From the sequence record LC739536.1: a stretch of DNA of 64,000 bases. One strand, 5' to 3'. Shown here in pieces: positions 34,220-55,250 of this stretch. This stretch comes from Escherichia phage phiWec187. Below the pieces are notes generated by a model. The model was not told the DNA's origin, made no database searches, and saw nothing but the letters and a program-made list of their open reading frames with translations. The stretch's first letter is position 1. Each line of letters begins with the position of its first letter. Made by a program: the position numbers and the translations under genes.

Positions 34220-37200
34220 TCAATGACAACTAGCCCATGAGTTACCAACATCGTAACCAGCAGTGAGAGGTACATTAAGATTGTAATACTCACCAGCTTT
34301 ATTAACAGCGATAGATGCTAATTCTCCAGCACGACTGTAGGCTGTAAACCAACCACCTTTCGGAGATTCATGTACGTTAGCCCAAATCTTGCCAGTACGT
34401 TTCTCTTCCTCTTCTTTCCAGGTATTAACTTTATCCAAACATTCTTTATCAATTTTCTTTTGTTCTTCTGGATCATCAACTTGAGTCCAACCTAAAGATT
34501 CTTTAGAGAACCATTTAAAATGCACCAGATCACGAGTTACTTCAAGCTGTGCTTCATCGTGATATGCAATCATTTGTTGAACGAATGACTTATTTTTCCA
34601 GTCATCAACAAAAAAGTCAACAGCTAATCCTTCTTCTTCGATAAGATCGTCGTAGATAACCATTGCTCTTTTTGCACAAATAACACCACCACTCTGGAAC
34701 AGAGAGTTAAGTATTGCGTGTGCAGATCGTGTAGGTACTTTTCTACCATCAATACCGAGAATGTATTTCTTACCTGTTTTAACCCAAAAATCATGCAGAC
34801 GTTCTTTAAGAAGCGCAAGAGGTTTTGCAGCTTCCCAGAAAGCATCGTATACAAGCTGTCCTGTATACATATCACTACCTATAGTTTTTGCTACTTTTGC
34901 AGCTTGAGCGCCGTACGTGCAGTTACCTGTCAACGTGATAAAACCATTCTGACGCATAACAAAAGATTCATTCTTGGTTGAGATACAGAATACATCTGTT
35001 ACTCGTGAAAAAGCTCTTGTCAACCTCTGTCCTGAAATAGTTTGTCCGTTATTGATTGCCAACGTTAACATGCCATCTTTTTGAACAGAACCATACGCAA
35101 TATTACCTGTCATATTGATAGCCAAAGAAACAGCGTCGCTAATCTTACCTTTCTTTTGACGGATAACAAGACTGCCGTTTGGACGCTTATGACCATCTGC
35201 CATCCAGAATGCCTCTAAGAATGCTTCCAACACAGCTTGACCTTGATTAGCAATTAATGTAGACCAGTCCACTTCGTGCTTATTTTGACCCACTTCAACG
35301 CCACATTTAGTCAAAAATTCCCTAAACTGACTCTTATTAGGACGTAATGAATGCATCGTTCCAGATACATACTCGTCAAATGTGAAGATATCTCCCACAG
35401 CCTCACGTGCTTCTTCTAAGAATTTTTTCTCATCTTGATCTACCGTGACTGTAATACCCATTACTTTATTTCTGGCTTTGCCAGACCACTTATAGTAGCC
35501 ATCCGAAAGAAGCCAGCCTAAGAAACGACCTTCTTCCACTGTTAGAGTAGACACCACACCAGATCGCCCTGCTGCAATTATGTTTGACTCCGAGTTTAAA
35601 TCCTCTGTAGATCTACGCTCCACTTGCATATACTTAACATTGTTACCATCTGATCGCATAGTTTTTCTCTGTGCGTTAATCCACATATGATCGTTAGTAA
35701 CTTCTACTTTGAACCACTTGTTACCGAGAGAGACAACTTCTGCATCGTTATAGTCCCACAGCTTAAGAATAGGGGTATATTCGTAAAGAGCGGTGTGAGT
35801 ATTATAAGATAAAACTTCATCCCCTACAAAAAGATCTTTACGTTTCTTCCAACCCGTTCTTGTTAACACTTCCGTATTATCTACAGGTACACAACCGTAT
35901 TTAACGCTCTTAGCAGGACCACGTTCAAACTTACGTCCAATAATATCAGTAATATGTTTTGCCATCATAGTATGCACATCGTTTGGTTTTTCTAACAGAA
36001 GTGCATTACAGTAAGCATGATCAGGATTATCATATCTCCACGTATAATGCGACTCAATCTTCGCCTCTAATGAATCAAAGTCATAACCAATCTGGAAGTA
36101 TTTAGGAACCTCTACACCAAATAAGTTACGCATTTCATATCCGTACAGAGATGTTACACGTGGGATATTTGCTACTAACCTATGTTTCATACGAGATGTA
36201 GCTGCATCACACGTTGCAGCAGGAGTTGGTATACGACCATCAGCCCTTACTGCTGCCAGATAACCTTTATCGTAATCCTCTTCTTCTTCCCAATCAGCAC
36301 CACCCCCTAGAATAGAGTTCCTACGGTGTTTATACGTAAGATACTGCACAACCTGCGTAGCATAAGGAAACTTTTCACCTAGTGCTTCCAAGTTAGGACA
36401 AATATCTTTCTCTTGCCCTTTTGTAAAGGAAGGGTTAGTAAGCACTTTAACACCACGACCTTTAGCTTTAGCAATACGATCTCTTAGTTTCCATTCCAAA
36501 GTTTCTGGTGTGCACTCCAGATGATCACATCTGTCCTGGCAGAAATTAGATGCTAATGTTTGATCAACATAGTCACGAATGGCTTTCTCCATTTGTGCTT
36601 CATCTTTCTTAATCTTAGTGCCAGATTTAAGAGTGATATCTTTATCTTTATATTCAGATGGACTCCAACCTAAACCAACTAACCAATTTTTAATATGTGT
36701 TGTGTCGTCTAAAGTAGCAGGTACTGTAGGATCACAAATAGGTTCTTCTGCTGGAATAGGTAGTTTAAACTCTTTACCTAATGCAAATAACCACCAACCA
36801 TCTTCTTTTTGTACAAGTTCACCAGAATGTTTCTCTGCAAACTTTATCATGTTACTTGAAGGTTCACCATTCTTTTTAAACTGTAGTTTAGGTGGAATGA
36901 ATGATTTCAAATAACCTTTAGTAGCAGGTTTAGGAGGTAGCACAGGTTCTGCCTCTAAACGACATGCTTCCATTCGAGCATCCAGATCACGAATATTATC
37001 TTCTGCTTGTTTCATGTTGAAAGCAAAGCCACGGTGCTCTTGACGTGTAATAATATCAGCTACACGTTGTTCTAAGTTAAATGGTTCAGACCACTTATTA
37101 TAATCACCCCACTCTTCCATCAAATAACGGAACACTGCGGTGTTAGCTTTGTTATCGTAAATACAGTAATACAGCATATCTGCTGCAAATGTTCTAAATC

Positions 37201-37768
37201 TTTCAGTTTCAGGGATGTTTTTTCTGAAATCAATTTTAACATCCCCTCCAGCTTTCTTAGATAACTCTGCCAGACTATGACCACCGAAGCGATCAGGGTT
37301 TAGTGTCTTACTTAAGATCATAGTATCACAAATTTCAATGTTACTATTACCCCAAGTATTGTACTTAATACTGTAGTTGAGTTTAAAAAATAATTTAATT
37401 GCCAGTAAGTCGAAGTTAATGATGTTGTGTCCAACTACTTTGGTAATTTTATAGTTTGAATTACCTTTAAATTTACCTGTTCCGTTTACAAAATCAGGAA
37501 AATCTTTAAGAGGGAAATGGGTATATTCTAAATGCTCATATTCCTCCAGTCGGTATTCATACTTTCCGTCAGTCTCAACATACGGACGACCATCGAAAAG
37601 ATATTTATCACCATCATGGAAAGCAATAATCTCTCCAGTATCATGACTTTCGCACACAATACAGTGCATTGCAAAACTATCTTTTAAACGATATGGACTT
37701 GCCAAGTAATCTACACTTTCGTCATTAAGCAAGTTGTTACTTTCAATGTCGAAAGTAAAAGCTCCCAT
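34220..37768 (-). CDS. family A (T7-like) DNA polymerase with 3'-5' exonuclease domain, interrupted by an intein
   Basis: Exo I FDIESNN; motif A DFDSLEAKI; motif B RGPAKSVKYG split by the intein and resuming CTYGAQAAK; motif C AYHDEAQLEV. Confidence 0.85.
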   Translation of the reverse strand: MGAFTFDIESNNLLNDESVDYLASPYRLKDSFAMHCIVCESHDTGEIIAFHDGDKYLFDGRPYVETDGKYEYRLEEYEHLEYTHFPLKDFPDFVNGTGKFKGNSNYKITKVVGHNIINFDLLAIKLFFKLNYSIKYNTWGNSNIEICDTMILSKTLNPDRFGGHSLAELSKKAGGDVKIDFRKNIPETERFRTFAADMLYYCIYDNKANTAVFRYLMEEWGDYNKWSEPFNLEQRVADIITRQEHRGFAFNMKQAEDNIRDLDARMEACRLEAEPVLPPKPATKGYLKSFIPPKLQFKKNGEPSSNMIKFAEKHSGELVQKEDGWWLFALGKEFKLPIPAEEPICDPTVPATLDDTTHIKNWLVGLGWSPSEYKDKDITLKSGTKIKKDEAQMEKAIRDYVDQTLASNFCQDRCDHLECTPETLEWKLRDRIAKAKGRGVKVLTNPSFTKGQEKDICPNLEALGEKFPYATQVVQYLTYKHRRNSILGGGADWEEEEDYDKGYLAAVRADGRIPTPAATCDAATSRMKHRLVANIPRVTSLYGYEMRNLFGVEVPKYFQIGYDFDSLEAKIESHYTWRYDNPDHAYCNALLLEKPNDVHTMMAKHITDIIGRKFERGPAKSVKYGCVPVDNTEVLTRTGWKKRKDLFVGDEVLSYNTHTALYEYTPILKLWDYNDAEVVSLGNKWFKVEVTNDHMWINAQRKTMRSDGNNVKYMQVERRSTEDLNSESNIIAAGRSGVVSTLTVEEGRFLGWLLSDGYYKWSGKARNKVMGITVTVDQDEKKFLEEAREAVGDIFTFDEYVSGTMHSLRPNKSQFREFLTKCGVEVGQNKHEVDWSTLIANQGQAVLEAFLEAFWMADGHKRPNGSLVIRQKKGKISDAVSLAINMTGNIAYGSVQKDGMLTLAINNGQTISGQRLTRAFSRVTDVFCISTKNESFVMRQNGFITLTGNCTYGAQAAKVAKTIGSDMYTGQLVYDAFWEAAKPLALLKERLHDFWVKTGKKYILGIDGRKVPTRSAHAILNSLFQSGGVICAKRAMVIYDDLIEEEGLAVDFFVDDWKNKSFVQQMIAYHDEAQLEVTRDLVHFKWFSKESLGWTQVDDPEEQKKIDKECLDKVNTWKEEEEKRTGKIWANVHESPKGGWFTAYSRAGELASIAVNKAGEYYNLNVPLTAGYDVGNSWASCH
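34922..35893 (-). mobile_element. intein (324 aa) with LAGLIDADG homing endonuclease, inserted in polymerase motif B
   Basis: starts at Cys626 (CVPVDNTEVL), ends at Asn949 (FITLTGN) followed by Cys+1; LAGLIDADG-like FLGWLLSDGY and LEAFWMADGH; boundary codons checked on the nucleotide sequence. Confidence 0.75.
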
Positions 37769-40049: not shown

Positions 40050-40319
40050 CTAAAATGATTCGTTTGTCTCCATAATATATTGCATTTCCAAATCTTCCAT
40101 ATGTTTCTTAAATTGGTAAACAATTTCCGATGGGGAAATATCTATATCAAAAAGTTCTTTTGTACCAGAATAAAACCTAATACCGTCAACAATAAGGCCA
40201 CCATAATAATCCCAATCACTTTCTCGTGAGAAAGGATTAGGTTCTTCATAATAGTAATCTACTTCAACAATAATAGGTTCTTTATTATCTTGTTTATACT
40301 CAAAATCAAAAGTGTTCAT
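40050..40319 (-). CDS. hypothetical protein
   Basis: 89 aa acidic ORF. Confidence 0.25.
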   Translation of the reverse strand: MNTFDFEYKQDNKEPIIVEVDYYYEEPNPFSRESDWDYYGGLIVDGIRFYSGTKELFDIDISPSEIVYQFKKHMEDLEMQYIMETNESF

Positions 40320-41263
40320 TATAAATCCTCGATAAGCAGTCTGCGGGTTTCATTTAAATCATCAATATTGTAGTTATCTCTTACATACTTAGCAAGAGCC
40401 AATCCTTTCTCAATACAAACATCAGGAGATTCGATTAAGTATTCTACAATATCTTTCCACTCTTTAACTGAATCAGCAAAGAAGATTAGATCTTTAAATT
40501 CTTCAGTATAATAGTTCTCTCGTGGTGAACAAACGAGTGGCAAACCTTTAGCACCAGCTTCAAGAATTTTTAAATTACTTTTGGCATTATTAAAATGATT
40601 ATTTACTAACGGAGCTATGGAGATTTGATGACCATCGTATGCTTCCATATAACACTCATAAGGACGAATACCTTCATAAACACAATCTGGTTGAATATCT
40701 TCTTTAATTTGCAACCATTGAGCACTACTTAACTCTTCGTGATCTCTACGAAATCCACATAAAGTTAAATCTTTACCAAAAGCAGGAAGAATTGCTAAAT
40801 CATGTTTATGGGTTTCACTTCCCGCCCAAACCAGTGGGCTTTTAGAATAACGATCTTTAGTAAGAACAAACTGCCCTTCATCAAAAGGTAGTCCGTTAGG
40901 CACAATATGTACATTATCATTGTATTGGCTTAATTCGACCTTTAATGCTGGAGTTGTTGTAGTTACAAGATCGCTTCTTTCAAGGAACCATTTTAGGTCA
41001 TCTCGGATTTGATTTTCAAATAATCCTTCCAGCATATGCCCTTCAGGAATAATTAAAGAATCATCCAGATCCATTACCAATTTAAACCCAAGTTGTTTAA
41101 GAGCCAGGAAACCTGGCTTTCCACGTGTTGGTACTCCATTGAACACAAAAATATTATGCTTAGGATTAATGGTCAGTTTGCGTTTATATGGCAAAATGAT
41201 TCTATGAAAATCACATACACTATACTTTTCATTTCCGCGTGTGTCAAGAATAATATTAGGCAT
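40319..41263 (-). CDS. glycosyltransferase, GT-B-like (paralog 1)
   Basis: 314 aa; C-terminal KILEAGAKGLPLVCSP resembles the GT1/GT4 nucleotide-sugar-binding region; paralogous to 41275..42249. Confidence 0.45.
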   Translation of the reverse strand: MPNIILDTRGNEKYSVCDFHRIILPYKRKLTINPKHNIFVFNGVPTRGKPGFLALKQLGFKLVMDLDDSLIIPEGHMLEGLFENQIRDDLKWFLERSDLVTTTTPALKVELSQYNDNVHIVPNGLPFDEGQFVLTKDRYSKSPLVWAGSETHKHDLAILPAFGKDLTLCGFRRDHEELSSAQWLQIKEDIQPDCVYEGIRPYECYMEAYDGHQISIAPLVNNHFNNAKSNLKILEAGAKGLPLVCSPRENYYTEEFKDLIFFADSVKEWKDIVEYLIESPDVCIEKGLALAKYVRDNYNIDDLNETRRLLIEDL

Positions 41264-41274
41264 ATAACTCCTTG

Positions 41275-42249
41275 TTAAAGACTTTCAATAACTTGACGAC
41301 GCAGTTCATTGGCATCTGCAAGATTATAATTAAGACGAACGTGTTCTGCAAGCATCATACCACGATCTTCTGTGTATCTAGGGTTCCTCATTAGCTTGAC
41401 AACTTCATAATGCCAAGATGCTTTAGAGTCTGCATAGATAACAGCCTTTGCATCTACCGGATTGAAGTACGGCAGCACAGGAGAACAGATAATAGGAAGA
41501 CCCTTTGCACCTGCTTCCAAAATCTTCAAATTGCTTTTACAGTTGTTGAAGTCATTATCTACCAGAGGAGCAATTGCAATACTGTGACCGTCATACACAG
41601 ACATATACTCACCTAAATTTTTAATAGCTGGTTTATACTGTGCATTTGGAATTTTACGTTTTACTTTAACCCACTCCGCAGTAGTTAGATACTGACTATT
41701 ATTTCCAACAGGTGCAGAAGGATACACTTCATACCCTGCAATTGTCAATAGCGTATCATCAAATGTATTAGCTACAAGAGATAAATCAGGTTCATGGCTT
41801 GCTCCTCCCGCCCAAATAATAGGCGTGTCAGAATAACGGTCTTTTGTCAAAGTAAATTGACCTTCGTCGTAAGGTAGTGCGTTTCTAATAACGACAACAT
41901 TACGATTTAAATGACGAATTTTGTAAGCTAGGTATTCTGTTGTTACAGTAACCACATCTGCTAACTTAATCATCTCTACAATAGTCTTTGAGTGATTAGT
42001 AAATACGCCAGCCATATAATGTTCAGGATTAAGCGAATAAAAATCATCTAAATCAACAATAATCTTAACACCTTGTGCCTTCAGGCGTTTAACCTCGTCT
42101 GATCCACGAGAATACACTCTATTAAAAACTAAAACGTCTTTCTTAGGTTTAAACGTATTTCCAGCAAATGGCATTACAATACGATGGTAATCACAACCAC
42201 TGCCTAACTTATTATCACACTTAAGTACAGGAGTATTAGGATTTACCAT
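41275..42249 (-). CDS. glycosyltransferase, GT-B-like (paralog 2); start re-assigned to ATG at 42249
   Basis: shares CDYHRI and IAIAPLVDNDFNNCKSNLKILEAGAKGLPIICSP blocks with paralog 1; AGGAGG RBS 9 nt upstream of ATG 42249. Confidence 0.45.
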   Translation of the reverse strand: MVNPNTPVLKCDNKLGSGCDYHRIVMPFAGNTFKPKKDVLVFNRVYSRGSDEVKRLKAQGVKIIVDLDDFYSLNPEHYMAGVFTNHSKTIVEMIKLADVVTVTTEYLAYKIRHLNRNVVVIRNALPYDEGQFTLTKDRYSDTPIIWAGGASHEPDLSLVANTFDDTLLTIAGYEVYPSAPVGNNSQYLTTAEWVKVKRKIPNAQYKPAIKNLGEYMSVYDGHSIAIAPLVDNDFNNCKSNLKILEAGAKGLPIICSPVLPYFNPVDAKAVIYADSKASWHYEVVKLMRNPRYTEDRGMMLAEHVRLNYNLADANELRRQVIESL

Positions 42250-42922
42250 ATTTTTGAGCCTCCTCATAAGAGATAAAAGTTTTACCATTGCGAAGATCCT
42301 CCAGTGATTGTTTATATTGTTCCCAGTTTACACCAATCCCCTGTTCTTTCTCTTCTTTTGACAGATTTGCAAAAGGTAAAGGATTGTCTCCAAACACATC
42401 GTCAGGATGGATAAACGCCATAATTCGAATAGGACATGGTACGCCGTGAATACCTCGGTTCAAACCTGCAAGTGGAACGCGCTGAATCCACTCTGCATCT
42501 TCATATCCATAACCGTGGGTGTATGAGCGGAAATAGCCAGCTTTCTCAATAACTGCACGGGAATACATACCAAACTGGCACATGCCTAGCTCCCAAATAA
42601 CTACTTCTCCTTCAATACCTTTTACTTTATCTTTAAAGTATTCAGGCATACCAAAGAAATCCCAACCATTTTCCTTCGCCTGTTTTACAAAATATGTTTC
42701 CCAACCTGGAACAACAGGATAACAATCATCATCAAAAATAAACCAGTAGTCATACCCTTCATCATAAAACTTTTTCATCAGTTCATTACGGGCATATGCA
42801 ACACCTTTTCGTTCACGATCATACTGTACAACAAAAGTAGCATTAGGATCAGTTACAAGATAATCTTTAAGAGGACGCTTACCTACAGTAATAACACCAA
42901 CACCAATTTTTGTATTTTCCAA
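42236..42922 (-). CDS. glycosyltransferase family 2-like (GT-A fold)
   Basis: 228 aa; DxD-type acidic motif FIFDDDCY and downstream YGYEDAEWIQR resembling the GT2 ED...R block. Confidence 0.5.
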   Translation of the reverse strand: MENTKIGVGVITVGKRPLKDYLVTDPNATFVVQYDRERKGVAYARNELMKKFYDEGYDYWFIFDDDCYPVVPGWETYFVKQAKENGWDFFGMPEYFKDKVKGIEGEVVIWELGMCQFGMYSRAVIEKAGYFRSYTHGYGYEDAEWIQRVPLAGLNRGIHGVPCPIRIMAFIHPDDVFGDNPLPFANLSKEEKEQGIGVNWEQYKQSLEDLRNGKTFISYEEAQKYGKS

Positions 42923-42931
42923 AATAACTCC

Positions 42932-43495
42932 TTAAATAATTTTATTCATGTCTTGACAATGTAAAAGGTGTGAAACAGCTTTTCTAGGATCATCATTACC
43001 TAAACGGTATGTGTGAAATAAATATAACCCACGTAGTAAACCTAGCCTTTTATTGTTAGCGTGCAATGCTTTAGAGAAAATTATATCAAACTGTATTGAT
43101 CTTTCCTCAAAAGGAATTTCATTCCACAGACTCTTACGAAAGAGAAGAAAGAATCCTGCTAAGATAGCATCTGTAGGTACTTCCTCTATTGAGTTTCCCC
43201 ATTCTAGATGTGCTCTTTTTGCAATCTCAATGTGGTGTAATATATTCGGATCTTCACTTCTTTCATTATTAAATAATTGATATGTTGATCCCAATCTGTT
43301 ACAAGATGCACCAAGAACATCAAAATCAGGATTTGAACGGACAATTGATTCCAGCCAAGCAGGTTGTTCTGGAAGAAGAAACATTGTATCAATGTCTCTT
43401 AGGCAAATCCAACTATCTTCTGGTAAGACACTTATTGTGTCATTGATACCTTTTCCAATATCTCCAGAAAGATAGGGAGTTATGTGAAATATCAT
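42932..43495 (-). CDS. putative glycosyltransferase (GT-A-like, DxD motif)
   Basis: 187 aa; CLRDIDTMF acidic motif; adjacent to three glycosyltransferase genes. Confidence 0.3.
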   Translation of the reverse strand: MIFHITPYLSGDIGKGINDTISVLPEDSWICLRDIDTMFLLPEQPAWLESIVRSNPDFDVLGASCNRLGSTYQLFNNERSEDPNILHHIEIAKRAHLEWGNSIEEVPTDAILAGFFLLFRKSLWNEIPFEERSIQFDIIFSKALHANNKRLGLLRGLYLFHTYRLGNDDPRKAVSHLLHCQDMNKII

Positions 43496-43552
43496 ACTCC
43501 CTCCGTATTATTACTTTAGCATTTTTAGACTAAAAAGTCCAAATGGTTTTAC

Positions 43553-43747
43553 CTATTGATTACGTTTTGCGAGTTCCATTTGGATAGCTAAACTGTGATC
43601 TCGTGCTTCCATATACTCTTTATATGTTTCATTAAGATGATCACGACAAACATCACGCAGTTTAATCAGTTTATCTGTAGGGATACCACTAAGATCATCC
43701 CAAGATTTTACAACTTCACCAGTATCATTGATCCCAATGGTTTTCAT
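43553..43747 (-). CDS. hypothetical small protein
   Basis: 64 aa ORF. Confidence 0.25.
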   Translation of the reverse strand: MKTIGINDTGEVVKSWDDLSGIPTDKLIKLRDVCRDHLNETYKEYMEARDHSLAIQMELAKRNQ

Positions 43748-44003
43748 CTACAACCTCCTTAATTGCTACAGCACAGTTTTTGCAGATACACTGCCCTTTA
43801 CCTTTAGAAATCTGGATGTAAGGTTCATTTTCATTTTCGCCCTTACGTGAGTCATATATTACAGAATTGAAGCACACAACGCAAATATTTTTTAAGATTG
43901 TATACTTATCAACTTTCTTTTTTGTTTTAAAGTTAACTTCAATAACATCAGCCATCAGTGTAACACTCCCAGTATGTTGCTTTGTGACATAACCATAGAA
44001 CAT
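43725..44003 (-). CDS. hypothetical small Cys-rich protein (possible zinc ribbon)
   Basis: 92 aa with CVVC ... CICKNC. Confidence 0.25.
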   Translation of the reverse strand: MFYGYVTKQHTGSVTLMADVIEVNFKTKKKVDKYTILKNICVVCFNSVIYDSRKGENENEPYIQISKGKGQCICKNCAVAIKEVVDENHWDQ

Positions 44004-44233
44004 TCAACATTATCGTGACTACGTGAAAAACGTTCCCAAACATCTTCATCGACTCGTAAAGCTATACAAGGATAGACGTTATCATTGATCATTTCAATTG
44101 AATAAACATCCACATTGTCTTCGTCTTCGATGAACATCATTGCAAACTGTTCTAAATGTTTCCTAATGTAATGTACATCCTCTTCTGTAAGACCAATAAC
44201 AAGATAACTTGCAACGATAACGCCATCTTTCAT
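43955..44233 (-). CDS. hypothetical small protein
   Basis: 92 aa ORF. Confidence 0.25.
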   Translation of the reverse strand: MKDGVIVASYLVIGLTEEDVHYIRKHLEQFAMMFIEDEDNVDVYSIEMINDNVYPCIALRVDEDVWERFSRSHDNVECSMVMSQSNILGVLH

Positions 44234-44243
44234 CTATATCTCC

Positions 44244-44753
44244 TTAGCGATAGAATTGATGTTCTTTGTAGCGGTACACTAGAACCATATCTTTTTCCCA
44301 GTGTGCTCTTATTGTAGATTTTTTAAAGTATAATGCTCCTTTTGTAATATCTAATGCAATTCGTAATTCTGGAAAATGCGTATCGAGATAAAGTAGACGT
44401 TCTGCTATAGCCTTAGCTTCCTTCCACTTATCACGTTCCATAACGTTGAATGTCTTTGTGTAAGAGAATTGTCCTTTTTGAAACAAAACTTCTTTTATAG
44501 TATCAGGGAAATATGAATCTCTAGCCCTATTCAATACTACATTACCAACAGCAGACATACCGCGCTTTCCTTGATTACGACTTTCTGCATAGATTGCACA
44601 AGCTAATAGATTTTCTTTACTATCACGCTTTGTACACTTGTGAACTACTTTAGCAGTTTTTACGTTTGCAGCTTCGGCTTGCGCCACAACAGGTGTAAAT
44701 GTAAAAGCAGTTAAGGATAGTAACGCAATTGCGACAAAGGTTTTTATTGACAA
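44244..44753 (-). CDS. secreted cell-wall hydrolase (SleB/Hydrolase_2-like), candidate endolysin
   Basis: 169 aa; N-terminal signal peptide with AQA-EA cleavage-like site; LACAIYAESRNQGKRGMSAVGNVVLNR resembles cell-wall hydrolase family 2. Confidence 0.5.
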   Translation of the reverse strand: MSIKTFVAIALLSLTAFTFTPVVAQAEAANVKTAKVVHKCTKRDSKENLLACAIYAESRNQGKRGMSAVGNVVLNRARDSYFPDTIKEVLFQKGQFSYTKTFNVMERDKWKEAKAIAERLLYLDTHFPELRIALDITKGALYFKKSTIRAHWEKDMVLVYRYKEHQFYR

Positions 44754-44846
44754 ACTTGCCTCCTATTTTGTTAAACGAACTTTTATTGTAACACAGAAGA
44801 GGCTGTTTTGCAAGTGGAGGGGGGATTATCCCCCTCTTACACTCTG

Positions 44847-45449
44847 TTAGATATTGTAAACCTTCGTATGAGTTACTACACCATCTTCTACAAAATCAAT
44901 ACGTTCTTGATCCGTAACTAGTGCAGACAACACTTTAAATTTAATTTTTACACGTTCAAAAGCTGGTTGACCATCTTTAAGATAATTATGTTCGGTTGTC
45001 ACTGTCTTGTTTACAAAATCAACTTTCGCTTTACCGTTTTCGCGTAGGTGGAATGTTTTTCCTGCTTTGTACACAATTTCAACATTACCTTCGAGAATAA
45101 TTCCTTCAAAAAGTTCACCCTCTTCTTCATTTTCTTCACTTTTGAACAGACGACGAAACTCTTCCATATCAAGATAAACAACATCTTCAGAATAACTATC
45201 AGTAAGGTATGTCTTACCATCCATTAACCCGAAATATTGCCAGATCGCAGAATAAACATCACTAGTTGATCCAAGGGTTTCTCTGAGTTTAGTTCCACGG
45301 ATTACTTCATAAACTTCAAAATTGAAACCAGACTGCAAAGCATCAAACAGTACATCACTAACTTCTACAGCATAATCTTGATTGTTGTCAACATCCACAA
45401 GAAAATTGCCGCTACGAATAAGTTTTTGACCTTCTAAAGTAATACCCAT
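44847..45449 (-). CDS. hypothetical protein
   Basis: 200 aa acidic ORF downstream of TerD. Confidence 0.3.
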   Translation of the reverse strand: MGITLEGQKLIRSGNFLVDVDNNQDYAVEVSDVLFDALQSGFNFEVYEVIRGTKLRETLGSTSDVYSAIWQYFGLMDGKTYLTDSYSEDVVYLDMEEFRRLFKSEENEEEGELFEGIILEGNVEIVYKAGKTFHLRENGKAKVDFVNKTVTTEHNYLKDGQPAFERVKIKFKVLSALVTDQERIDFVEDGVVTHTKVYNI

Positions 45450-45476
45450 TGTTTTCTCCTCTTTTATTTAAAATAT

Positions 45477-45492
45477 GCGCCCCGAAGGGCGC
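45477..45492 (-). terminator. terminator hairpin after TerD gene
   Basis: stem gcgccc / gggcgc with cgaa loop; minus-strand atatttt follows. Confidence 0.4.
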
Positions 45493-45501
45493 TATGATTT
45501 A

Positions 45502-46098
45502 TTACTCGAACCAATCGTCGCCAGCGCCAAACGCTTTAACTACATCGTAAATGTCAAGCCCAGCTTTACCCACACCATACGCTTTCAGTTTCCATTCGCT
45601 ATCTTCTCGCACCAGGGAGGCAACGTGGCAAATGGTGTTACCTGCAAGTTCTGGAGCCAAGAAGTCAAAGTCCAGCAGTTCAACATTACGTTCATCATCG
45701 AAGATTTTAAGGAAACCTTCGGTAGCGTGACCAAGGCGTTTCTTACCCGTTTCGTCATCAATAGTAATTACGAATGCAATTTCCTGTGCTTCAGCAGAGA
45801 TATTATCCAGTGTAACATCAATCTGCTCCATCTGTCCTACACCATCACGAACATCTTCACCTGCAAAAGTAGAACGTTCAGGATCAAATTTCTGCGCGTA
45901 GCACACCAGGTGACGAGGAGACAACAGTTCCGGCAGACCAGATGCATTGTGTCGGCAAATCAGAGCACTAACATCCAGATCCAGTTTTTCGTTAGATTTC
46001 CAAGAGAATTCCAGACGAATGCGTTTCAGTGCTGGTGCAATCTTTTTCAGAGAAACTTTTTCGCTAGAACCTTTTTTCAGGGAAATTTTCTGAGTCAT
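45502..46098 (-). CDS. terD: TerD-family stress protein
   Basis: 198 aa; ISLKKGSSEKVSLKK, LDLDVSALIC, EIAFVITIDD, SEWKLKAYGVGKAGL align with E. coli TerD blocks as I recall them. Confidence 0.8.
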   Translation of the reverse strand: MTQKISLKKGSSEKVSLKKIAPALKRIRLEFSWKSNEKLDLDVSALICRHNASGLPELLSPRHLVCYAQKFDPERSTFAGEDVRDGVGQMEQIDVTLDNISAEAQEIAFVITIDDETGKKRLGHATEGFLKIFDDERNVELLDFDFLAPELAGNTICHVASLVREDSEWKLKAYGVGKAGLDIYDVVKAFGAGDDWFE

Positions 46099-46170
46099 AA
46101 TTTATTATCTCCTTTGTTGTTAATTTACGTTGTCTATTTTACTAATCTTTTCTACAAAGTCAAGCGTTTT

Positions 46171-46965
46171 TTACGCTTTTGCTCCAAATTTTTTAACCCA
46201 CTCACCAAACTCTTCGGATAGCAGTTTATCGTAAAGTTCTTCGTCAGACAAGGACAAATCTGCAATACCGATAAAATCAACATTATCGTATTCTTTTGCC
46301 AAGTCTTTCAGGAATTTAAAGTTTGCATTACCTACACCAACCATAAACCAGTAAACAGGCGTATTGCGGTGTTTGTTCAGTAAGCTACGTACTGCTGAAG
46401 TATCCATGTTCTCCCCGTCAGTTTGGAAGAAAATCATTGCAGGAGTACGATCAACTTGTGCATCAGTATCTACAACCTGTTCTACAACAGTACGTGTTAC
46501 TTCTACAAGTTCTTTTTTACCAGTTAGTTTAGCAAGGAAACCTTTAGCCGGAACTTCTTCATACTCAACGACTTCGCGTGTAATATTTTTCATAGGTACA
46601 CTACCGAAGTATGTATCATAGATCTCTTGCATTACTGGAGCATAAGCAGTACCACCGTTGATGCAAACATTAGACATGCAAGAGCCGACATAATCATCAT
46701 ACACATCAGCCGTTGCAGGAGGCAGTTCAAAAGAAGAACTATTGAAAGCCCACATGTCAATCTGTGCATTATCATCAAACTTCATACCAAACGGCAGTAG
46801 CTTACCTACAAAATCACTGACAGTGCCATCACGATATAGCTCACACATACTACCCGAAATATCTAAGGCGCTACCGACACGAAGAACAACATCGTTAATC
46901 TTTTTCTTACGCAGAGATACAGTAAGAGTCTCTTGACGTTTTTTAAGACTGATTTTATTGGACAT
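46171..46965 (-). CDS. von Willebrand factor A domain protein (TerY-like)
   Basis: 264 aa; MIDAS-like DISGSM motif after a TerD-like ISLKK N-terminus; adjacent to terD. Confidence 0.55.
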   Translation of the reverse strand: MSNKISLKKRQETLTVSLRKKKINDVVLRVGSALDISGSMCELYRDGTVSDFVGKLLPFGMKFDDNAQIDMWAFNSSSFELPPATADVYDDYVGSCMSNVCINGGTAYAPVMQEIYDTYFGSVPMKNITREVVEYEEVPAKGFLAKLTGKKELVEVTRTVVEQVVDTDAQVDRTPAMIFFQTDGENMDTSAVRSLLNKHRNTPVYWFMVGVGNANFKFLKDLAKEYDNVDFIGIADLSLSDEELYDKLLSEEFGEWVKKFGAKA

Positions 46966-46966
46966 A

Positions 46967-47236
46967 TTATTTCTCCTTTTTGACTGTAATGTTAGTAACT
47001 TCTAAATCCACTTCTACCACTTCTATATCATATAAAATACAGTTAAGTTGACCTCTTTGTGAACCGTTCAGACACATTGCTTGGTTTGTATTAACCTTAA
47101 TAAACACTAAGTTTCTGAACGTATCTAAACCAGCATCTTGATAGGCAAAATAATATACAAATGTATCACCTGCGTCAAGTTCTCCAAAACATTTAGGTTC
47201 ATATGATTCGTCGTCTTTGATATTAAATTTAAGCAC
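46967..47236 (-). CDS. hypothetical protein
   Basis: 89 aa ORF. Confidence 0.25.
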   Translation of the reverse strand: MLKFNIKDDESYEPKCFGELDAGDTFVYYFAYQDAGLDTFRNLVFIKVNTNQAMCLNGSQRGQLNCILYDIEVVEVDLEVTNITVKKEK

Positions 47237-47792
47237 TATCTTCTCCTTTACCTACTTTCAAGCCTAAATAGAAAGCCTCTCTAGTGATTTTTTGCAACTC
47301 GTTTAAAGAGATAGTTACAACTAAATCATCTTCAATTTCTAGCTTTGAGTCTTCTTCTGTCTCAATGCAAGTATTATGCACTTTGTGGTAAGGATTGTCA
47401 ACACGTTTAAATTTATTATTTTCAGTGCTGAAGAAGCAATCTGGATCTTCTTCCACATCACCCCAACCCTGGTTAGGATCTTCTTCAGATCTTTCTGTTG
47501 GGATCTCACCTGTAAAGTGCTCTTCTAATACCAGAGCAATCCCATCTCCAGGATCGGAAGAGAACATCAAATTACAAACTTCTTCCCAAGGCATAGACCA
47601 CTTAAATCTTTTACGATTGCCATGTTTATCTTCTTCGTTAGAGAAAACACTACCATAGCTATCATAATTCCCATACATCTCTTCGACAACCTTACCACCT
47701 TTCAAAAGAAATAGGTAGCAAGGAGAGCCATCGAAAGAGGTAGAAAGAGCAGCATTACCAGACTCTTTGCACAAGAAACTAAAACACCCCAT
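47229..47792 (-). CDS. hypothetical acidic protein
   Basis: 187 aa ORF within the Ter-like cluster. Confidence 0.3.
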   Translation of the reverse strand: MGCFSFLCKESGNAALSTSFDGSPCYLFLLKGGKVVEEMYGNYDSYGSVFSNEEDKHGNRKRFKWSMPWEEVCNLMFSSDPGDGIALVLEEHFTGEIPTERSEEDPNQGWGDVEEDPDCFFSTENNKFKRVDNPYHKVHNTCIETEEDSKLEIEDDLVVTISLNELQKITREAFYLGLKVGKGEDSA

Positions 47793-47992
47793 TATACACC
47801 AGCCTTAAGATCAATTAAAGCCAAAGTTGTTTCAGAGTGTGTTTGCTCGTCTACAGGTGCAGTCATATGATAATACAAAAAATCTTCGGCATCATACCAA
47901 TCTGATTCTTGACCTTGTTTCCAACCATCAATGAAAGCATCTTCCATAATGGTTTGCAATTCTTCACGAGTTAAGTGAATATCTTTACTCAT
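47792..47992 (-). CDS. hypothetical small protein
   Basis: 66 aa ORF. Confidence 0.25.
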   Translation of the reverse strand: MSKDIHLTREELQTIMEDAFIDGWKQGQESDWYDAEDFLYYHMTAPVDEQTHSETTLALIDLKAGV

Positions 47993-48225
47993 TACACATT
48001 CTCCTCTTTTACCAAGTCCATCGTTGAACTATCAAAACCATCTTTAGAAGAATAGGTATAGACAGAACGTAGTTCTCGCAGGACAGTGAATACATTAGGA
48101 TCATCTAACCAAGCATCCTGGAGGAGAACATAACGATCTTCATTGTCATACTGAACAGCAATCATAGAACCAGACAGTTTGTAAATTTTAATATTCATAA
48201 TATATTTCTCCTTAAAGTAGACCAC
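47992..48225 (-). CDS. hypothetical small protein
   Basis: 77 aa ORF. Confidence 0.25.
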   Translation of the reverse strand: MVYFKEKYIMNIKIYKLSGSMIAVQYDNEDRYVLLQDAWLDDPNVFTVLRELRSVYTYSSKDGFDSSTMDLVKEENV

Positions 48226-49315
48226 GTTTAACAGTTTGAATCATACCATCTTCAAGAGATTGCACTTCTTGAATGTAATCAATACGCGCAGCACGGGCTT
48301 CAGTGTTGATTCGGTTAGTTTCTTCCAACATTTTAACTAAGTTTTCTTGATCGCGACGTAATGTTTCAATATCCAATACTTGACGATTAGCAAGTTGTGT
48401 AGCTTCAATTTGGTTTTGTGCAGCCAGATCACTACCCATTGCAATAGCAGCATTAAATTCATTCAGCACATTGTTCTGTGTATCGGCTGCTTTCTTCTGG
48501 CGTAGACTTTCAATATACATAGAAAAGTTTGCAGAGTAAGCAGGGATAACATTATTCACAATATTACGGGCTGATCGCATCAAACTTGCAGATACTTTCT
48601 GCATACTTTGTACACGTGGCCCCATCTGAACACACAGTAAACGCAAGGCTTTCAGGTCTGCAATACGAATTTCAAGCAGATCCATAGTATCACGAGTACG
48701 TTGACGCTCTTCTACTTCATTTTCAGGTAGTGTATTAAGGCGAACTTCTTCTTTTTCATAAGTAGCTGTTAGAAGCTCTATATCCCTGTTTAAGCTAAGA
48801 GCATATTTTGCAATAGCCTCTTCTAAACGTTGCAGATATCGTAAAGAATCTTCTTCTTTTTTCAAGTCTGTTTGTAGTGTCTTTACCAAACCTTCAATAC
48901 GATTATTGATGGTGTCAAATTCACCAAACAAATCTTCTTTCATACCTAATACTTTCTTAACCAGTTTACCTAAGCCTTTAGATTGTTTAATAGAGTTAGG
49001 ATCAAGTTGCTTTGCTTGCTTAATAAGTGCAGTTAAACGTTCACTCATTTCATCCCCCTGAGATGAACGCTGGTGTTTAAGCACTTCAGCATTAAGGTTA
49101 CGAAGAGTAAGTCCTGCATCAGCACCAACTTGTTCAATCTCTTCACGAGACATTGGAGGCAGCATTTGTACAGGTCGTGCAACAGCAGGGGCATATACAG
49201 GGCTTGCATCCATAGCACTTGGAGCAAACAAAGACTTACTTTTTTCTGTTGTTGCCGTGAATACACTCATTTCAGACGGTTTGCTTTTTACGGCACTGAT
49301 AAAAGGACTGGACAT
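48212..49315 (-). CDS. TelA-like toxic anion resistance family protein
   Basis: 367 aa, largely coiled-coil, with size and architecture of TelA/KlaA; context with TerD and TerC; no single diagnostic motif. Confidence 0.45.
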   Translation of the reverse strand: MSSPFISAVKSKPSEMSVFTATTEKSKSLFAPSAMDASPVYAPAVARPVQMLPPMSREEIEQVGADAGLTLRNLNAEVLKHQRSSQGDEMSERLTALIKQAKQLDPNSIKQSKGLGKLVKKVLGMKEDLFGEFDTINNRIEGLVKTLQTDLKKEEDSLRYLQRLEEAIAKYALSLNRDIELLTATYEKEEVRLNTLPENEVEERQRTRDTMDLLEIRIADLKALRLLCVQMGPRVQSMQKVSASLMRSARNIVNNVIPAYSANFSMYIESLRQKKAADTQNNVLNEFNAAIAMGSDLAAQNQIEATQLANRQVLDIETLRRDQENLVKMLEETNRINTEARAARIDYIQEVQSLEDGMIQTVKRGLL

Positions 49316-49383
49316 TCAATTTCCTCCGTATTCTTTAGTAGATGGTGATACCTCTGTACCACCATCATAACACAAATTAAGTA

Positions 49384-50235
49384 TTAAACAAACATATCTA
49401 AATAATTTGTAGTAATAAATGCTCCATCTGCTTCCAGATTAACATAACCAGTAGCATTAGTGGTTAAGAAATCCAGATCGAAGGACTCTTTAACACCCCG
49501 TACCTCAACACGAGAGATATCGAATACAGGTAGTGTAACAGCCTCTTCGTGCAATACCGTACCTTTGTAGGTTGCCTTAATGATAAACTTGATATTACCC
49601 GTTCCAGCATCATACAAAACACTTTCAAACCCTTTGAGAGTATACTTATCACCAGAAGTGAAGTGCAAAGTTGCTTTGTTTACAGTACGTTTTTTACGAG
49701 GAGTTCCTTTCACACGTTTATGATCACTACGTTTTTTGTATTTAGGAATGAATACAAACGATACATTGTGAAGAAAGGTATCAACATCAAGGATTTTAAT
49801 ATCCTCTGTTGCAGCAAATTTTGAAGTTGTTGCATCAAAATGCTTTTCCCGGCGATCATACATAAAGATATCAAACCGATCTTCTAAATCAAACAAATTA
49901 TGTATTTTAATTTCAGAATGCTTGCGCATTGCAGCAACCTTGAACTCTTCAAAACGTGGGTGTTCTACAAGTTCTTCAAGTTTTACACCAAAGACAGTAT
50001 ATTGCTTCGGAGTTTTTTCTGGTGTTGGCATTACAGAAGCATAATCACCGATTGCGCTCTTAAAGCAAAATTGTTCTTGACCTGTATTTTTACCAACGAA
50101 TTTACAGTATTCGTCATCGTGCATACTTTCCTGGGTAGTACCAACAAACTCAAAACCATCTTTATTCTTCTCAAGAATTTCTTGATTAAAGATCCAACCT
50201 TCCAGGCGATATACTTTACCAACTTCTAGTTTCAT
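49384..50235 (-). CDS. hypothetical protein
   Basis: 283 aa ORF between TelA-like and lipoprotein genes. Confidence 0.3.
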   Translation of the reverse strand: MKLEVGKVYRLEGWIFNQEILEKNKDGFEFVGTTQESMHDDEYCKFVGKNTGQEQFCFKSAIGDYASVMPTPEKTPKQYTVFGVKLEELVEHPRFEEFKVAAMRKHSEIKIHNLFDLEDRFDIFMYDRREKHFDATTSKFAATEDIKILDVDTFLHNVSFVFIPKYKKRSDHKRVKGTPRKKRTVNKATLHFTSGDKYTLKGFESVLYDAGTGNIKFIIKATYKGTVLHEEAVTLPVFDISRVEVRGVKESFDLDFLTTNATGYVNLEADGAFITTNYLDMFV

Positions 50236-50270
50236 CTGTTTCTCCTTCTTATTTAATCTGTATTAAATTA

Positions 50271-50861
50271 TTAACGACGACGTGAGCTACTAAAACTACG
50301 TTTCGACGAAGAATAACTTTTCGAAGACTTACTATAAGAGCTAACAGGACTTGAGTAAGACTTACCAGCAGAGTAATCACTATTCACTTTTGTTGTTGAT
50401 GGGCGTGAATACGTTTGTACACTTTGCTGCTTAATTGTGTTTTGTTTAGTGGTTGTATATGTATTTCCTTGTTTATCATAAAAACTATGCTTTTGTGTTG
50501 TATATGCTTTACTATTAGTTGTAGGAGCAGCGTTGTTATTGATAATTGTTGTATTGCTACCGCCATCTCTATAACCACCACCGCCACTATTACCACTCAA
50601 CATATGACCAAGAAGCATACCTGTAGCGAACTCACCTACGCCAGAAGAACCACTGCCGCCTCCTTGAACAACAACTGTTGAAGGTTGTGCAGGTGCTGCT
50701 TGAACAACTTGAGGTGCAGGCTGATTTACATATTGTTCATCTACCATCTGATTTGGTGTTTGTTGGTAACGTTGGTTTTGTACATTTTCAGAATCATCAC
50801 AACCTACCAGCAATGCACTACCTAATACAACTGCAACAATAAAAGATTTAATGTTTTTCAT
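50271..50861 (-). CDS. lipoprotein with Gly-rich and Ser/Tyr-rich low-complexity regions; start re-assigned to ATG at 50861
   Basis: signal peptide with lipobox LLVGC; GAGAGG-type RBS upstream of the second ATG; C-terminal SYSSPVSSYSKSSKSYSSSKRSFSSSRRR. Confidence 0.45.
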   Translation of the reverse strand: MKNIKSFIVAVVLGSALLVGCDDSENVQNQRYQQTPNQMVDEQYVNQPAPQVVQAAPAQPSTVVVQGGGSGSSGVGEFATGMLLGHMLSGNSGGGGYRDGGSNTTIINNNAAPTTNSKAYTTQKHSFYDKQGNTYTTTKQNTIKQQSVQTYSRPSTTKVNSDYSAGKSYSSPVSSYSKSSKSYSSSKRSFSSSRRR

Positions 50862-51093
50862 TTGTAACCCTCTCATTTAAAGTCTCAACACAATTTTTAA
50901 AATCTCTAGAGAAACAATACATCTGTTCTCCGTTCCTGTTGATAGTAATTGTATGGTTATCAATATATGTTGTCAAGATAAAAATCAAACAAAACAACCC
51001 TAGAGCAAAACAAATATTTTCAAACAGAATCCAAAGAACACGTAAAACCACCATCAGATCACCTCAATAAAGCCCCCGAAGGGGCTTAATGAA

Positions 51094-52071
51094 TTAAGCA
51101 ACAGCCTGGTCTTCTTTTTCAGGGAAGATTAAACTTGCAATAACACCCAGCCCAAGAGTACCTAACACAATATACATACTGATCGTCGGATCAATGTGTG
51201 CTGGTAGGAAACTCACTTTTGCGTGCAGAGTTTCTGCAAACGGATGATACATCAGTTTTACACCCACAAATACCAGGACTACGATAACTGCTTTCTCCAG
51301 ATGAACCAAATACTTCAGTGCAACACTAAGAACAAAGAACAGAGCACGTAAACCTAAGATAGCACAGAGCATCGAAGAGAACACCAGCAGAGGTTCTTGT
51401 GTCACTGCAATCACTGCTGGAACAGAGTCTACTGCAAAGATTACGTCAACCATTTCCATTACAAACACACAAACCAGAGCCGGAGTTGCTACACGAACAC
51501 CATTTTTGATTGTGAAGAACTTCTCACCATCCATCTGATCAGATACAGGGAACAGCTTACGAACAATGCGAGTAGCCCAGTGTTTAGAGTAATCAACTTC
51601 TGCATCATTATCTCCAGCGAATACCATTTTAGCCGCACAGAAAAGGATGACCGCACCGAAGAAGATATTAACATACCAGCCCAAACTCAACAAGTAAGTG
51701 CCTACTGCTACAAACACACCTCGGAAGACAATCGCACCTGCAATACCCCAAAGTAGAATCTTGTGCTGCAAGTGTGTGCTTTTAATACCAAAACTTGCGA
51801 ATACTGCCACAAATACTACTAAGTTATCTACAGAAAGAGATTTCTCCAACACATACCCACTTAAGAACAAGCTCGCAAAATCAGCACCGTGTTGGAAGTA
51901 TACAAAACCATAGTAGGCTAATGATACCCCAATCCAGAAAATTGACCAGCCAATTGCAGATTTAAATGAAATTTCTTTGTTTTCTCTGTGTCCAAAGAAA
52001 TCAATACAAATCGACAAGACTAAAATACCCACTAAAACAACCACATCAATAATTGGGAAACCCAGTTGCAT
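51094..52071 (-). CDS. terC: TerC-family integral membrane protein
   Basis: 325 aa polytopic membrane protein; YVLEKSLSVDNLVVFVAVF matches the conserved TerC block. Confidence 0.75.
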   Translation of the reverse strand: MQLGFPIIDVVVLVGILVLSICIDFFGHRENKEISFKSAIGWSIFWIGVSLAYYGFVYFQHGADFASLFLSGYVLEKSLSVDNLVVFVAVFASFGIKSTHLQHKILLWGIAGAIVFRGVFVAVGTYLLSLGWYVNIFFGAVILFCAAKMVFAGDNDAEVDYSKHWATRIVRKLFPVSDQMDGEKFFTIKNGVRVATPALVCVFVMEMVDVIFAVDSVPAVIAVTQEPLLVFSSMLCAILGLRALFFVLSVALKYLVHLEKAVIVVLVFVGVKLMYHPFAETLHAKVSFLPAHIDPTISMYIVLGTLGLGVIASLIFPEKEDQAVA

Positions 52072-52411: not shown

Positions 52412-52618
52412 TTATTTGTTAGATTGAAAGATACCACGGAGTACCGCAAGAATGAACGTCACACAGACTACACTCCAAAACGTTACAGGAACATGATGCC
52501 AGTCTAAGCCGATAATGTCAATCATATAATTGTATGCTAAAAGCAGTAGCCAACTAGGGATTAACACAATCAAGAACACAACAATAAAACAACCTAATAC
52601 TGCTAAAACACCTGCCAT
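52412..52618 (-). CDS. small membrane protein
   Basis: 68 aa, two hydrophobic helices. Confidence 0.3.
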   Translation of the reverse strand: MAGVLAVLGCFIVVFLIVLIPSWLLLLAYNYMIDIIGLDWHHVPVTFWSVVCVTFILAVLRGIFQSNK

Positions 52619-52627: not shown

Positions 52628-53344
52628 TTATTTCAGTTTGTAAACAATTACATTTAAACCTTTGTTTACTAGAGTTTCTTCGATCATAAGTTTTACAATA
52701 TTCCAAGAACCTCCAGCCAAACCACAACCAAGCATTGGTAAACCTACAATTTTACCGCCTGAAGATACAACATCGTCTCCCATACTATCTAGCGCATTGT
52801 AGATAGCTTCATAATTCAGGTCACGCTTACCTTCCTCACGACGACTATAACCATATTGTCCATATAAATTATAAATTGTCAAATTGTTTTCTGTATATTT
52901 GGTAAACGTACCTAATTTTTTATAATCACCACGTTTAGTGGCACAATCTGCTTTAAACGCACCAGGCCACTTGCTTTTAATTTTTGGTGCAATACCACTA
53001 CCCATAGTGCAAAAACAGTTACAGCAGTGTGCTATAGCGTCTATATCGCCTCTCTCGGCTGCTGCTAAAAGATCACCGTATACCTCAATGATACCTGCTG
53101 GATAACTTGTTACAATTTCATCTTCCCAGTACATTTTCTCTACACCACCGATCAGTGCAAAGTTTTGTGTAATGCGATCATCAATATAGTTAAGCCCTGA
53201 AACATACACAGCGTATTCATCCTGTGCTGTAATACCTTGCACACGAATTCTTAAGACACCATCTTTATCTGTTGCTACACGCCCAAAATCTTTTTCTGTA
53301 ATATTGGTGATAGGATCTCCGAAAGTCATTACTTTATTAGACAT
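52628..53344 (-). CDS. macro-domain protein (ADP-ribose binding/processing); start re-assigned to ATG at 53344
   Basis: IAHCCNCFCTMGSGIAPKI and C-terminal LGCGLAGG resemble macro-domain blocks; ORF track start lies inside the upstream gene. Confidence 0.5.
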   Translation of the reverse strand: MSNKVMTFGDPITNITEKDFGRVATDKDGVLRIRVQGITAQDEYAVYVSGLNYIDDRITQNFALIGGVEKMYWEDEIVTSYPAGIIEVYGDLLAAAERGDIDAIAHCCNCFCTMGSGIAPKIKSKWPGAFKADCATKRGDYKKLGTFTKYTENNLTIYNLYGQYGYSRREEGKRDLNYEAIYNALDSMGDDVVSSGGKIVGLPMLGCGLAGGSWNIVKLMIEETLVNKGLNVIVYKLK

Positions 53345-55216: not shown

Positions 55217-55250
55217 ATAAATAAAGGAGGCTTTCGCCTCCTTTTATCAC

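Follow-up and report, generated by a model that had tools for sequence, protein, structure and literature searches.

A gene on the minus strand at positions 44244..44753 of the analysed stretch of 64,000 nucleotides from Escherichia phage phiWec187 (LC739536.1; the whole stretch is hereafter referred to as the window) encodes a SleB-like (Hydrolase_2) cell-wall hydrolase of 169 aa that is predicted to be exported, identified by its open reading frame and by its matches in Pfam and PHROG. The protein is a homologue of gp170 of phage phi92 and we suggest, with about even confidence, that gp170 is a Sec-exported, holin-independent accessory murein hydrolase that assists lysis and is not the sole endolysin of the phage. 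An earlier note, made from the letters of the window, had put the protein forward as an endolysin candidate. The muralytic domain behind this candidacy is upheld by the present analysis, whereas the inference that the protein is the endolysin of the phage is weakened: it rested on the protein being the only hydrolase in view, and genomes essentially identical to the window also carry a T4-type lysozyme and a spanin pair at loci that the window does not include.

Judging from sequence identity, the source of the window is a phi92-like E. coli myophage (Stephanstirmvirinae, Justusliebigvirus). A 2-kb stretch at the gene matches the corresponding region of Antha and VivaForever, both Escherichia phages, with 100% identity and that of muut, alia, inny and others with 99-99.9%, and outside this local region the genome of Antha differs from the window by indels. 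The protein encoded in the window and Phi92_gp170 share 99.4% identity and differ at a single position, where the start codon is read as Leu. The gene is the already known Phi92_gp170, annotations of which exist in dozens of genomes, and the significance of the finding for this window alone is therefore very little. It was reportedly published along with phage phi92 in 2012. A signal peptide on the SleB-like family has also already been reported, for its rV5/CB7 relatives. A gp170-like protein at 60% identity or more was found in 131 records and SleB-like homologues were detected by tblastn in 1147 phage records; in the phi92 record, gp170 is given as 56% similar to PVP-SE1 gp243. RefSeq and Pharokka-type pipelines name the homologues of gp170 'endolysin', and a number of submitters chose 'putative cell wall hydrolase' or 'SleB'. 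In the curated records of BASEL they stand as 'hypothetical protein', and the endolysin is assigned there to the homologues of another phi92 protein, gp061, for which the name in RefSeq is 'baseplate hub subunit and tail lysozyme'.

A Sec-type signal peptide was recognised by inspection and a simple heuristic at codons 1-26 (MSIKTFVAIALLSLTAFTFTPVVAQA; 44676..44753, minus strand). The N-terminus reads MSIK-TFVAIALLSLTAFTFTPVVAQA-EA, with the cleavage point before EA, and n-, h- and c-regions are present: MSIK constitutes the n-region, FVAIALLSLTAFTF the h-region, and TPVVAQA precedes the EA that follows the predicted cut (read further into the mature protein, MSIK, TFVAIALLSLTAFTF and TPVVAQA, then EAANVK). 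The segment has one basic residue, a hydrophobic core of 14 residues, Pro at -6, Ala at -3 and -1 and an acidic residue at +1, and the same inspection and heuristic predict a signal peptidase I site after Ala26 (AQA followed by EA). On inspection, the N-terminus was found to contain no twin-arginine motif, no lipobox Cys and no cysteine before residue 40, and the protein is therefore neither a Tat substrate nor a lipoprotein. Removal of the signal from the 19.5-kDa precursor would leave a predicted mature periplasmic enzyme of residues 27-169 (143 aa, 16.8 kDa, pI 9.7; 44247..44675, minus strand).

A word-indexed protein search gave only 19 close homologues, and the statements made here on the family as a whole are based on an exhaustive comparison with 1.8 billion cluster representatives, in which 6144 clusters matched at E<=1e-3; 164 short representatives taken from these constitute the family sample. 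Signal-peptide-like N-termini were observed in 138 of these 164 short homologues, a possible lipobox in 11, another hydrophobic anchor in nine and none of these in the remaining six. Among 16 homologues with 60-98% identity, every one retains small residues at -3 and -1 despite indels in the c-region (VVAQA, VYA, GVAHSA, IMVHA, ALA, GYSEA and VVEA being the variants), a conservation that is as expected from selection for a signal peptidase I site. The signals of T5 'sleb' (MKAAWLLVAALTFSFSSQA followed by S, with the cut motif SQA before the S) and of rV5 'SleB' (...LSLPVVA followed by A) are equally classical. Secretory export, which had earlier been proposed for the one protein of the window, appears to be a trait of the whole family and is well supported in silico by these N-termini.

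The sole Pfam domain of the protein is Hydrolase_2 (PF07486, 'cell wall hydrolase'), which was matched with 72.1 bits (E=6.5e-20; gathering score 27) in an alignment spanning positions 2-100 of the 100 of the profile and residues 61-168 of the protein. A match to PHROG 938, named 'endolysin' and placed in the category 'lysis', was obtained with E=1.5e-20. Sequence matches in the PDB are confined to the SleB structures 4F55 and 4FET, which align over the helix bearing the catalytic Glu from residue 48 of the gp170 homologue onwards. Glu57 (codon GAA, 44583..44585, minus strand), in the context 'IYAESRNQ', aligns with the Glu of SleB 'YGESRGE' and is invariant in 71 diverse homologues, as are Arg76 and His165; a catalytic role for Glu57 would follow by analogy from the published work on SleB. 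An AlphaFold2 model, for which the 71 diverse homologues served as input, has a mean pLDDT of 92.4, and the SleB catalytic domains 4F55 and 4FET were the only significant matches of Foldseek against the PDB (probability 1.00, target-normalised TM 0.73-0.77).

The gp170 homologue thus shares with the catalytic domain of Bacillus SleB (4F55, 4FET) the fold and an aligned catalytic Glu motif at 23% identity. By sequence, it does not qualify as an orthologue of SleB proper: its score with the NCBIfam equivalog TIGR02869 is 51.9 bits, where the cut-off is 236.5, and it lacks the N-terminal peptidoglycan-binding domain of SleB, residues 27-47 being a short linker. Two invariant cysteines, Cys40 within the linker and Cys52, could form a periplasmic disulfide. 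Bacillus SleB is a germination-specific lytic transglycosylase and, from the literature on that enzyme, the chemistry of the gp170 homologue is likely to be that of a lytic transglycosylase as well; the muramic-delta-lactam specificity of SleB cannot apply to it because the host has no spore cortex.

The start codon is TTG at 44753-44751, the sole start that takes in the hydrophobic N-terminus, with the Shine-Dalgarno sequence AGGAGG 5 nt 5' of it (44759..44764, minus strand). Inside the 93-nt gap 5' of the gene lies a sigma-70-like promoter candidate, proposed from its match to the consensus only (TTGCAA, 17 nt and TACAAT, with a TG extension; 44785..44813, minus strand), and between this candidate and the upstream gene there is a GC-rich hairpin, GAGGGGG-ATAAT-CCCCCCTC, without a T-run (44817..44836, minus strand), which is kept across genera. 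The hairpin, the -35 hexamer, the TG-extended -10, the Shine-Dalgarno sequence and the TTG are all kept in a relative from Phapecoctavirus, the protein of which is about 75% identical. The SleB gene of rV5 starts with GTG, and the recurrence of a non-ATG start among the SleB-like genes would fit a selection for low output. An assignment of early expression on the basis of the promoter candidate was considered and rejected, as equally good consensus promoters are found in the tail module of the window, so that the type of promoter does not date expression, and as the regional count of sigma-70-like sites around the gene is not above that of shuffled sequence.

Pfam scans of the 70 ORFs of at least 64 aa in the window, the tail and baseplate proteins included, revealed no second muralytic family. 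The three downstream ORFs (43955-44233, 43725-44003 and 43553-43747) and the upstream ORF at 44847-45449 lack hydrophobic segments and gave no informative match in Pfam. Farther upstream are TerD-, vWA/TerF-, TelA- and TerC-like genes and farther downstream four glycosyltransferases, a primase-helicase and a DNA polymerase, all on the minus strand, while the tail and baseplate module occupies the plus strand at about 1-30.9 kb of the window. With its neighbours soluble and the spanins outside the window, the gene does not belong to a lysis cassette; its conserved N-terminal signal peptide separates the product from the canonical holin-dependent endolysins, which carry no export signal; and a non-structural block on the strand opposite to the tail genes is not where a virion-associated lysin would be encoded. 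The earlier note had described a SleB-like hydrolase with a Sec-type signal peptide, no adjacent holin and no other recognisable peptidoglycan hydrolase in view; these descriptions hold, the last one for the window and not for the genome, and the minus strand is added here. The observations on the ORF, the domain, the signal and the neighbourhood cannot be chance.

The genome of Antha, one of those essentially identical to the window, was read as a whole, and 144 proteins encoded outside the window that are 'hypothetical' or small were scanned. The product of 135570-136070, a protein of 166 aa annotated as 'hypothetical', matches Pfam Phage_lysozyme and is the homologue of Phi92_gp061. Its alignment of 161 residues with the T4 lysozyme gpe shows 52% identity (E=3e-61); the catalytic Glu, Asp and Thr are found where T4 has E11, D20 and T26, and the protein has neither a signal sequence nor a hydrophobic N-terminus. 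The tail-lysozyme label given to gp061 by RefSeq is probably a transfer error, because gp061 is closer in sequence to T4 gpe (50-53%) than to the gp5 tail-lysozyme domains (40-44%) and because its locus, between dTDP-sugar genes and phoH, is far from the tail genes. At E<=1e-60, gp061 was found in 132 phage records, including phi92, muut, alia, Antha, VivaForever, Nernie and Eryne, and about 131-132 phage records contain both hydrolases; with counts of 132 for gp061 and 131 for the SleB-like protein, the enzymes therefore travel together throughout the subfamily. Both gp170 and the T4 gpe/Phi92_gp061 type are small, basic, single-domain proteins, encoded singly and away from the holin and spanin genes, whereas gp061 differs in having no signal sequence, in its GH24 fold and in its location outside the window. 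An i-spanin (143 aa, with an N-terminal TMD) and an overlapping o-spanin (lipobox LMMTGC) adjoin the large terminase gene of Antha, about 48 kb from the SleB-like gene in Antha coordinates. The gp061 homologue, the i-spanin and the o-spanin are all absent from the window.

A hydropathy scan of the scanned Antha proteins and of the ORFs of the window did not recognise a holin, and no candidate matched a PHROG lysis family. The small two-TMD proteins considered as holins, at 29792-30229, 30244-30417, 4651-4863, 11041-11208 and 33425-33691 of Antha and at 52412-52618 of the window, were rejected, having no lysis PHROG match, and none of them adjoins either of the hydrolases or the spanins. Others have likewise reported for the rV5-like phages that the holin was not recognised. 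The lysis genes of the phi92-like phages are scattered in a T4-like manner, and a complete canonical lysis route presumably exists in these phages, its holin being one that the scan did not recognise. The search for holin or spanin genes elsewhere in the genome, which the earlier note had proposed, yielded the spanin pair and no recognisable holin in Antha; of the canonical holin-endolysin cassette that was to speak against its proposal, the endolysin gp061 is present and no cassette was found.

In the proposed role as an accessory hydrolase, translation would start at the TTG behind the strong Shine-Dalgarno site, and the precursor would be exported by SecYEG and cut after Ala26 by signal peptidase I to give a basic, soluble periplasmic enzyme of 16.8 kDa. 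The mature enzyme, with a SleB/CwlJ fold and Glu57, is expected from the example of Bacillus SleB to cleave the MurNAc-GlcNAc bond in the manner of a lytic transglycosylase. As peptidoglycan would be reached without a holin, gp170 could act before or alongside the main lysis pathway, which would comprise the cytoplasmic T4-type lysozyme (the gp061 homologue), a holin and the i-/o-spanin pair, all encoded outside the window. An accessory role for gp170 is suggested because of this holin-free access to murein together with the presumed presence of the canonical route, and gp170 would serve to weaken the sacculus or to help clear it. Premature lysis would presumably be limited by low output, to which the conserved non-ATG start may contribute, and/or by low activity on the wall of the energised cell, although the latter restraint is speculation. 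Against the accessory role, a freely soluble periplasmic muramidase should endanger the infected cell and no restraint is evident; the non-structural neighbourhood and the early-region homologue in T5 also fit a non-lytic role at least as well.

In each lineage checked, the accepted endolysin is a protein other than the SleB-like enzyme. The T5-like phages have lysozyme and holin genes together with a 'cell wall hydrolase SleB' in the early region, where the 'sleb' of T5 lies 3' of an annotated early promoter. For PVP-SE1, gp146 is the endolysin that has been characterised. In rV5, gp89 has been described as 'an obvious lysin' of the Phage_lysozyme family, and SleB is ORF2, directly upstream of rIIA. 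For Phapecoctavirus, 'two lytic proteins' have been reported, with Phage_lysozyme and Hydrolase_2 domains; in PaP1, the purified endolysin g072 is active on peptidoglycan and the 'cell wall hydrolase' g029, a distant homologue with an N-terminal TMD and no obvious cleavage site, is a separate protein. Like Phi92_gp170, the SleB-like genes of T5 and rV5 lie apart from the canonical endolysin gene of their own phage. The SleB-like protein of Pectobacterium phage CB7 has been reported to have a signal peptide and homologues throughout the Vequintavirinae, and to be toxic when expressed in E. coli (given by its authors as data not shown). In Certrevirus, a two-TMD holin-like gene is reported to overlap the SleB-like gene, whereas the gene of the window has no such neighbour downstream. 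The phage homologues PVP-SE1 gp243, rV5 ORF2, CB7_83, CR3_087 of a Cronobacter phage and T5 'sleb' are likewise single-domain Hydrolase_2 proteins of about 150-175 aa with a signal peptide. Links to lysis are seen among these relatives in the holin-like overlap of Certrevirus, the toxicity of the CB7 protein and the abutment of the rV5 gene on rIIA. A literature search found no biochemical or genetic study of the SleB-like enzymes from phages of Gram-negative hosts.

Export of a phage lysin by a cleavable signal peptide has a precedent in Lys44 of the Oenococcus phage fOg44, which is said to be the sole endolysin of that phage of a Gram-positive host. The gp170 homologue resembles Lys44 in its predicted cleavable signal and in access to the wall without a holin, and is unlike it in the Gram-negative host, in the presence of a second, cytoplasmic lysozyme and in the catalytic domain.

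The main rival of the accessory role, a possible though rather doubtful one, is that gp170 is a non-lytic periplasmic remodelling enzyme that acts at early or middle times to trim or loosen peptidoglycan or to release muropeptides, with no measurable contribution to lysis; cell enlargement, altered envelope physiology and exclusion of other phages are among the benefits possible in that case. The location of the gene among Ter-like stress genes, glycosyltransferases and replication genes, with a conserved sigma-70-like promoter candidate, is consistent with such an enzyme, and so are the early-region homologue of T5 with its annotated early promoter, that of rV5 next to rIIA and the separate canonical endolysin of every lineage examined. 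For a distant homologue, gp151 of PAK_P3, an auxiliary metabolic role in wall degradation during infection has been proposed by the authors, which would explain an accumulation of cell-wall precursors; the log2 fold change of its transcript in one supplementary comparison of that study is 0.62 and not significant. Sigma-70-like promoters occur, however, in the tail module too, so that the time of expression is not given, and both the holin-like gene beside the Certrevirus homologue and the toxic effect of the CB7 protein point to lysis. It is unlikely that gp170 is the principal endolysin, with the T4-like lysozyme serving elsewhere, for example in association with the tail. This assignment agrees with the 'endolysin' of RefSeq and several submitters for gp170, with the tail lysozyme of RefSeq for gp061 and with the 'lysis' category of PHROG 938, but the supporting labels are automatic transfers and not experiments; the curated BASEL records name gp061 as the endolysin and gp170 homologues as hypothetical, and gp061 is a free-standing protein of 166 aa, nearer to T4 gpe than to the gp5 domains and encoded far from the tail genes.

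SAR domains, such as those of P1 Lyz and of R21 from phage 21, are Gly/Ala-rich and uncleaved. The SAR endolysins share with the gp170 homologue the Sec delivery, the N-terminal hydrophobic segment and the lack of need for a large-hole holin, and gp170 could in principle be one of them, inactive on its uncleaved tether until a pinholin depolarises the membrane and then released. The uncharged N-terminal stretch of 22 residues, 45% of them Ala, Ser or Thr, would suit a SAR domain, signal-peptide predictors commonly flag such domains, and the distant homologue in PaP1 has its TMD without an obvious cleavage site. We nevertheless consider a SAR endolysin quite improbable: Gly is absent from the segment, which carries several residues of Phe, Leu, Ile and Val, the Pro at -6 and the Ala-x-Ala pattern are kept through indels, the T5 and rV5 homologues have shorter h- and c-regions of 18 residues with clear sites, and no pinholin-like gene is adjacent. 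P1 Lyz and R21 also have another catalytic fold. Participation in DNA ejection as a virion-associated lysin is very unlikely, because virions are built in the cytoplasm and the Sec signal takes the protein away from there. The one point in favour of this role is that no other hydrolase is seen in a window that also holds the tail module; against it, the gene belongs to a non-structural block and the tail genes are on the other strand, and the proteomics paper on rV5 does not name SleB in its main text as a protein of the virion. The ejection-associated wall remodelling that had been offered as an alternative to lysis in the earlier note is hence not sustained.

Beyond gp170, it is tentatively suggested that the exported SleB-type hydrolases may represent a class of enzymes distinct in function, kept beside the true endolysin by large virulent phages of Gram-negative hosts, namely the T5-like, rV5-like, phi92/phAPEC8-like and PaP1/KPP10-like lineages. 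Public annotation disagrees on which of the two genes encodes the endolysin, with RefSeq on one side and the curated BASEL records on the other, and those who mine genomes for lysins should know of both enzymes. At least four lineages of virulent phages that are unrelated to one another encode an exported SleB-like enzyme alongside a canonical endolysin, and this recurrence suggests a conserved accessory function. If such a class exists, delivery through the Sec pathway during the latent period would remodel or pre-weaken the sacculus or release muropeptides, and would constitute a step of infection without a described counterpart in the holin-endolysin-spanin model.

The annotation of the lysis enzymes is contradictory across the genus. 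The orthologue of T4 lysozyme, which is the equivalent of Phi92_gp061 and lies outside the window, is located at 135570-136070 in the close relative Antha (PP925826.1) and shares 52% identity with gpe. The Antha, VivaForever and Nernie records list this protein as a 'hypothetical protein', RefSeq names it 'baseplate hub subunit and tail lysozyme', and the BASEL records call it 'endolysin'; the 'endolysin' label of RefSeq is placed on the SleB-like hydrolase gene (44244-44753, minus strand). Homologues of gp061 are also present in four GenBank records, MG065639, MG065645, MG065656 and MG065689, which are described as 'Campylobacter phage' with C. jejuni as the host and match the 43500-45500 region of the window with 99.4% identity. 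These records probably carry a wrong organism or host label, or reflect contamination of the samples.

In the SleB-like protein, Cys40 and Cys52, which precede the catalytic Glu by 17 and 5 residues, respectively, are invariant within the close subfamily, where they occur in the pattern H-K/T-C ... L-A-C-x-x-Y-x-E. The wider family carries another conserved pair of cysteines, in C-L-A-x-N-I-Y and T-x-C-x-V-V-Y-Q. Cys40 and Cys52 could possibly form a disulfide in the periplasm. A 113-residue protein with an N-terminal transmembrane domain and a coiled coil, encoded within the tail-fibre cluster (23250-23591, plus strand), is annotated as 'lipoprotein' (PHROG 15210) and weakly matches a PHROG of Rz-like spanins (E=5e-4).

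Directly upstream of the hydrolase gene, tellurite-resistance-like genes are clustered at 45502-52071 on the minus strand, and include those for TerD (45502-46098), a vWA/TerF-like protein (46171-46965), a TelA-like protein (48212-49315) and the membrane protein TerC (51094-52071). The TerD and vWA/TerF genes are likewise found upstream of the SleB-like gene in Phapecoctavirus. The same block encodes a second exported protein, a predicted lipoprotein of 201 residues (50271-50876, minus strand), with a signal ending in LLVGC and a long, low-complexity tail rich in Ser, Gly and Tyr; a signal peptide is annotated in its phi92 counterpart, gp180.

The DNA polymerase I gene appears to carry variable insertions of the intein or intron type among near-identical phages. 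Its open reading frame encodes 1182 residues in the window (34220-37768, minus strand), whereas it spans 3315 nt (1104 residues) in phi92; Antha has a gene of 2580 nt (859 residues) and a small additional open reading frame. Among the nucleotide-metabolism genes at 52628-63983 (minus strand), Intein_splicing, Hint, HNH and I-HmuI-like endonuclease domains co-occur with matches to NRDD (anaerobic ribonucleotide reductase) on two separate open reading frames, which together suggest that nrdD is split, or interrupted by an intein or intron.

Four glycosyltransferase-like genes occur in succession at 40319-43495 (minus strand), and one protein of the scanned batch weakly matched PF20691 (E=6.8e-5), a family of TET-associated glycosyltransferases. 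A dTDP-sugar pathway is encoded in another part of the genome, and in combination these genes hint at glycosylation of DNA or protein in the phage. Inside the tail module (10205-10276, plus strand), a near-consensus sigma-70 promoter (TTGACA ... TGATAAAAT) comes directly after a terminator, a hairpin with its T-run, indicating that host-type promoters in phiWec187 are not limited to the early genes.
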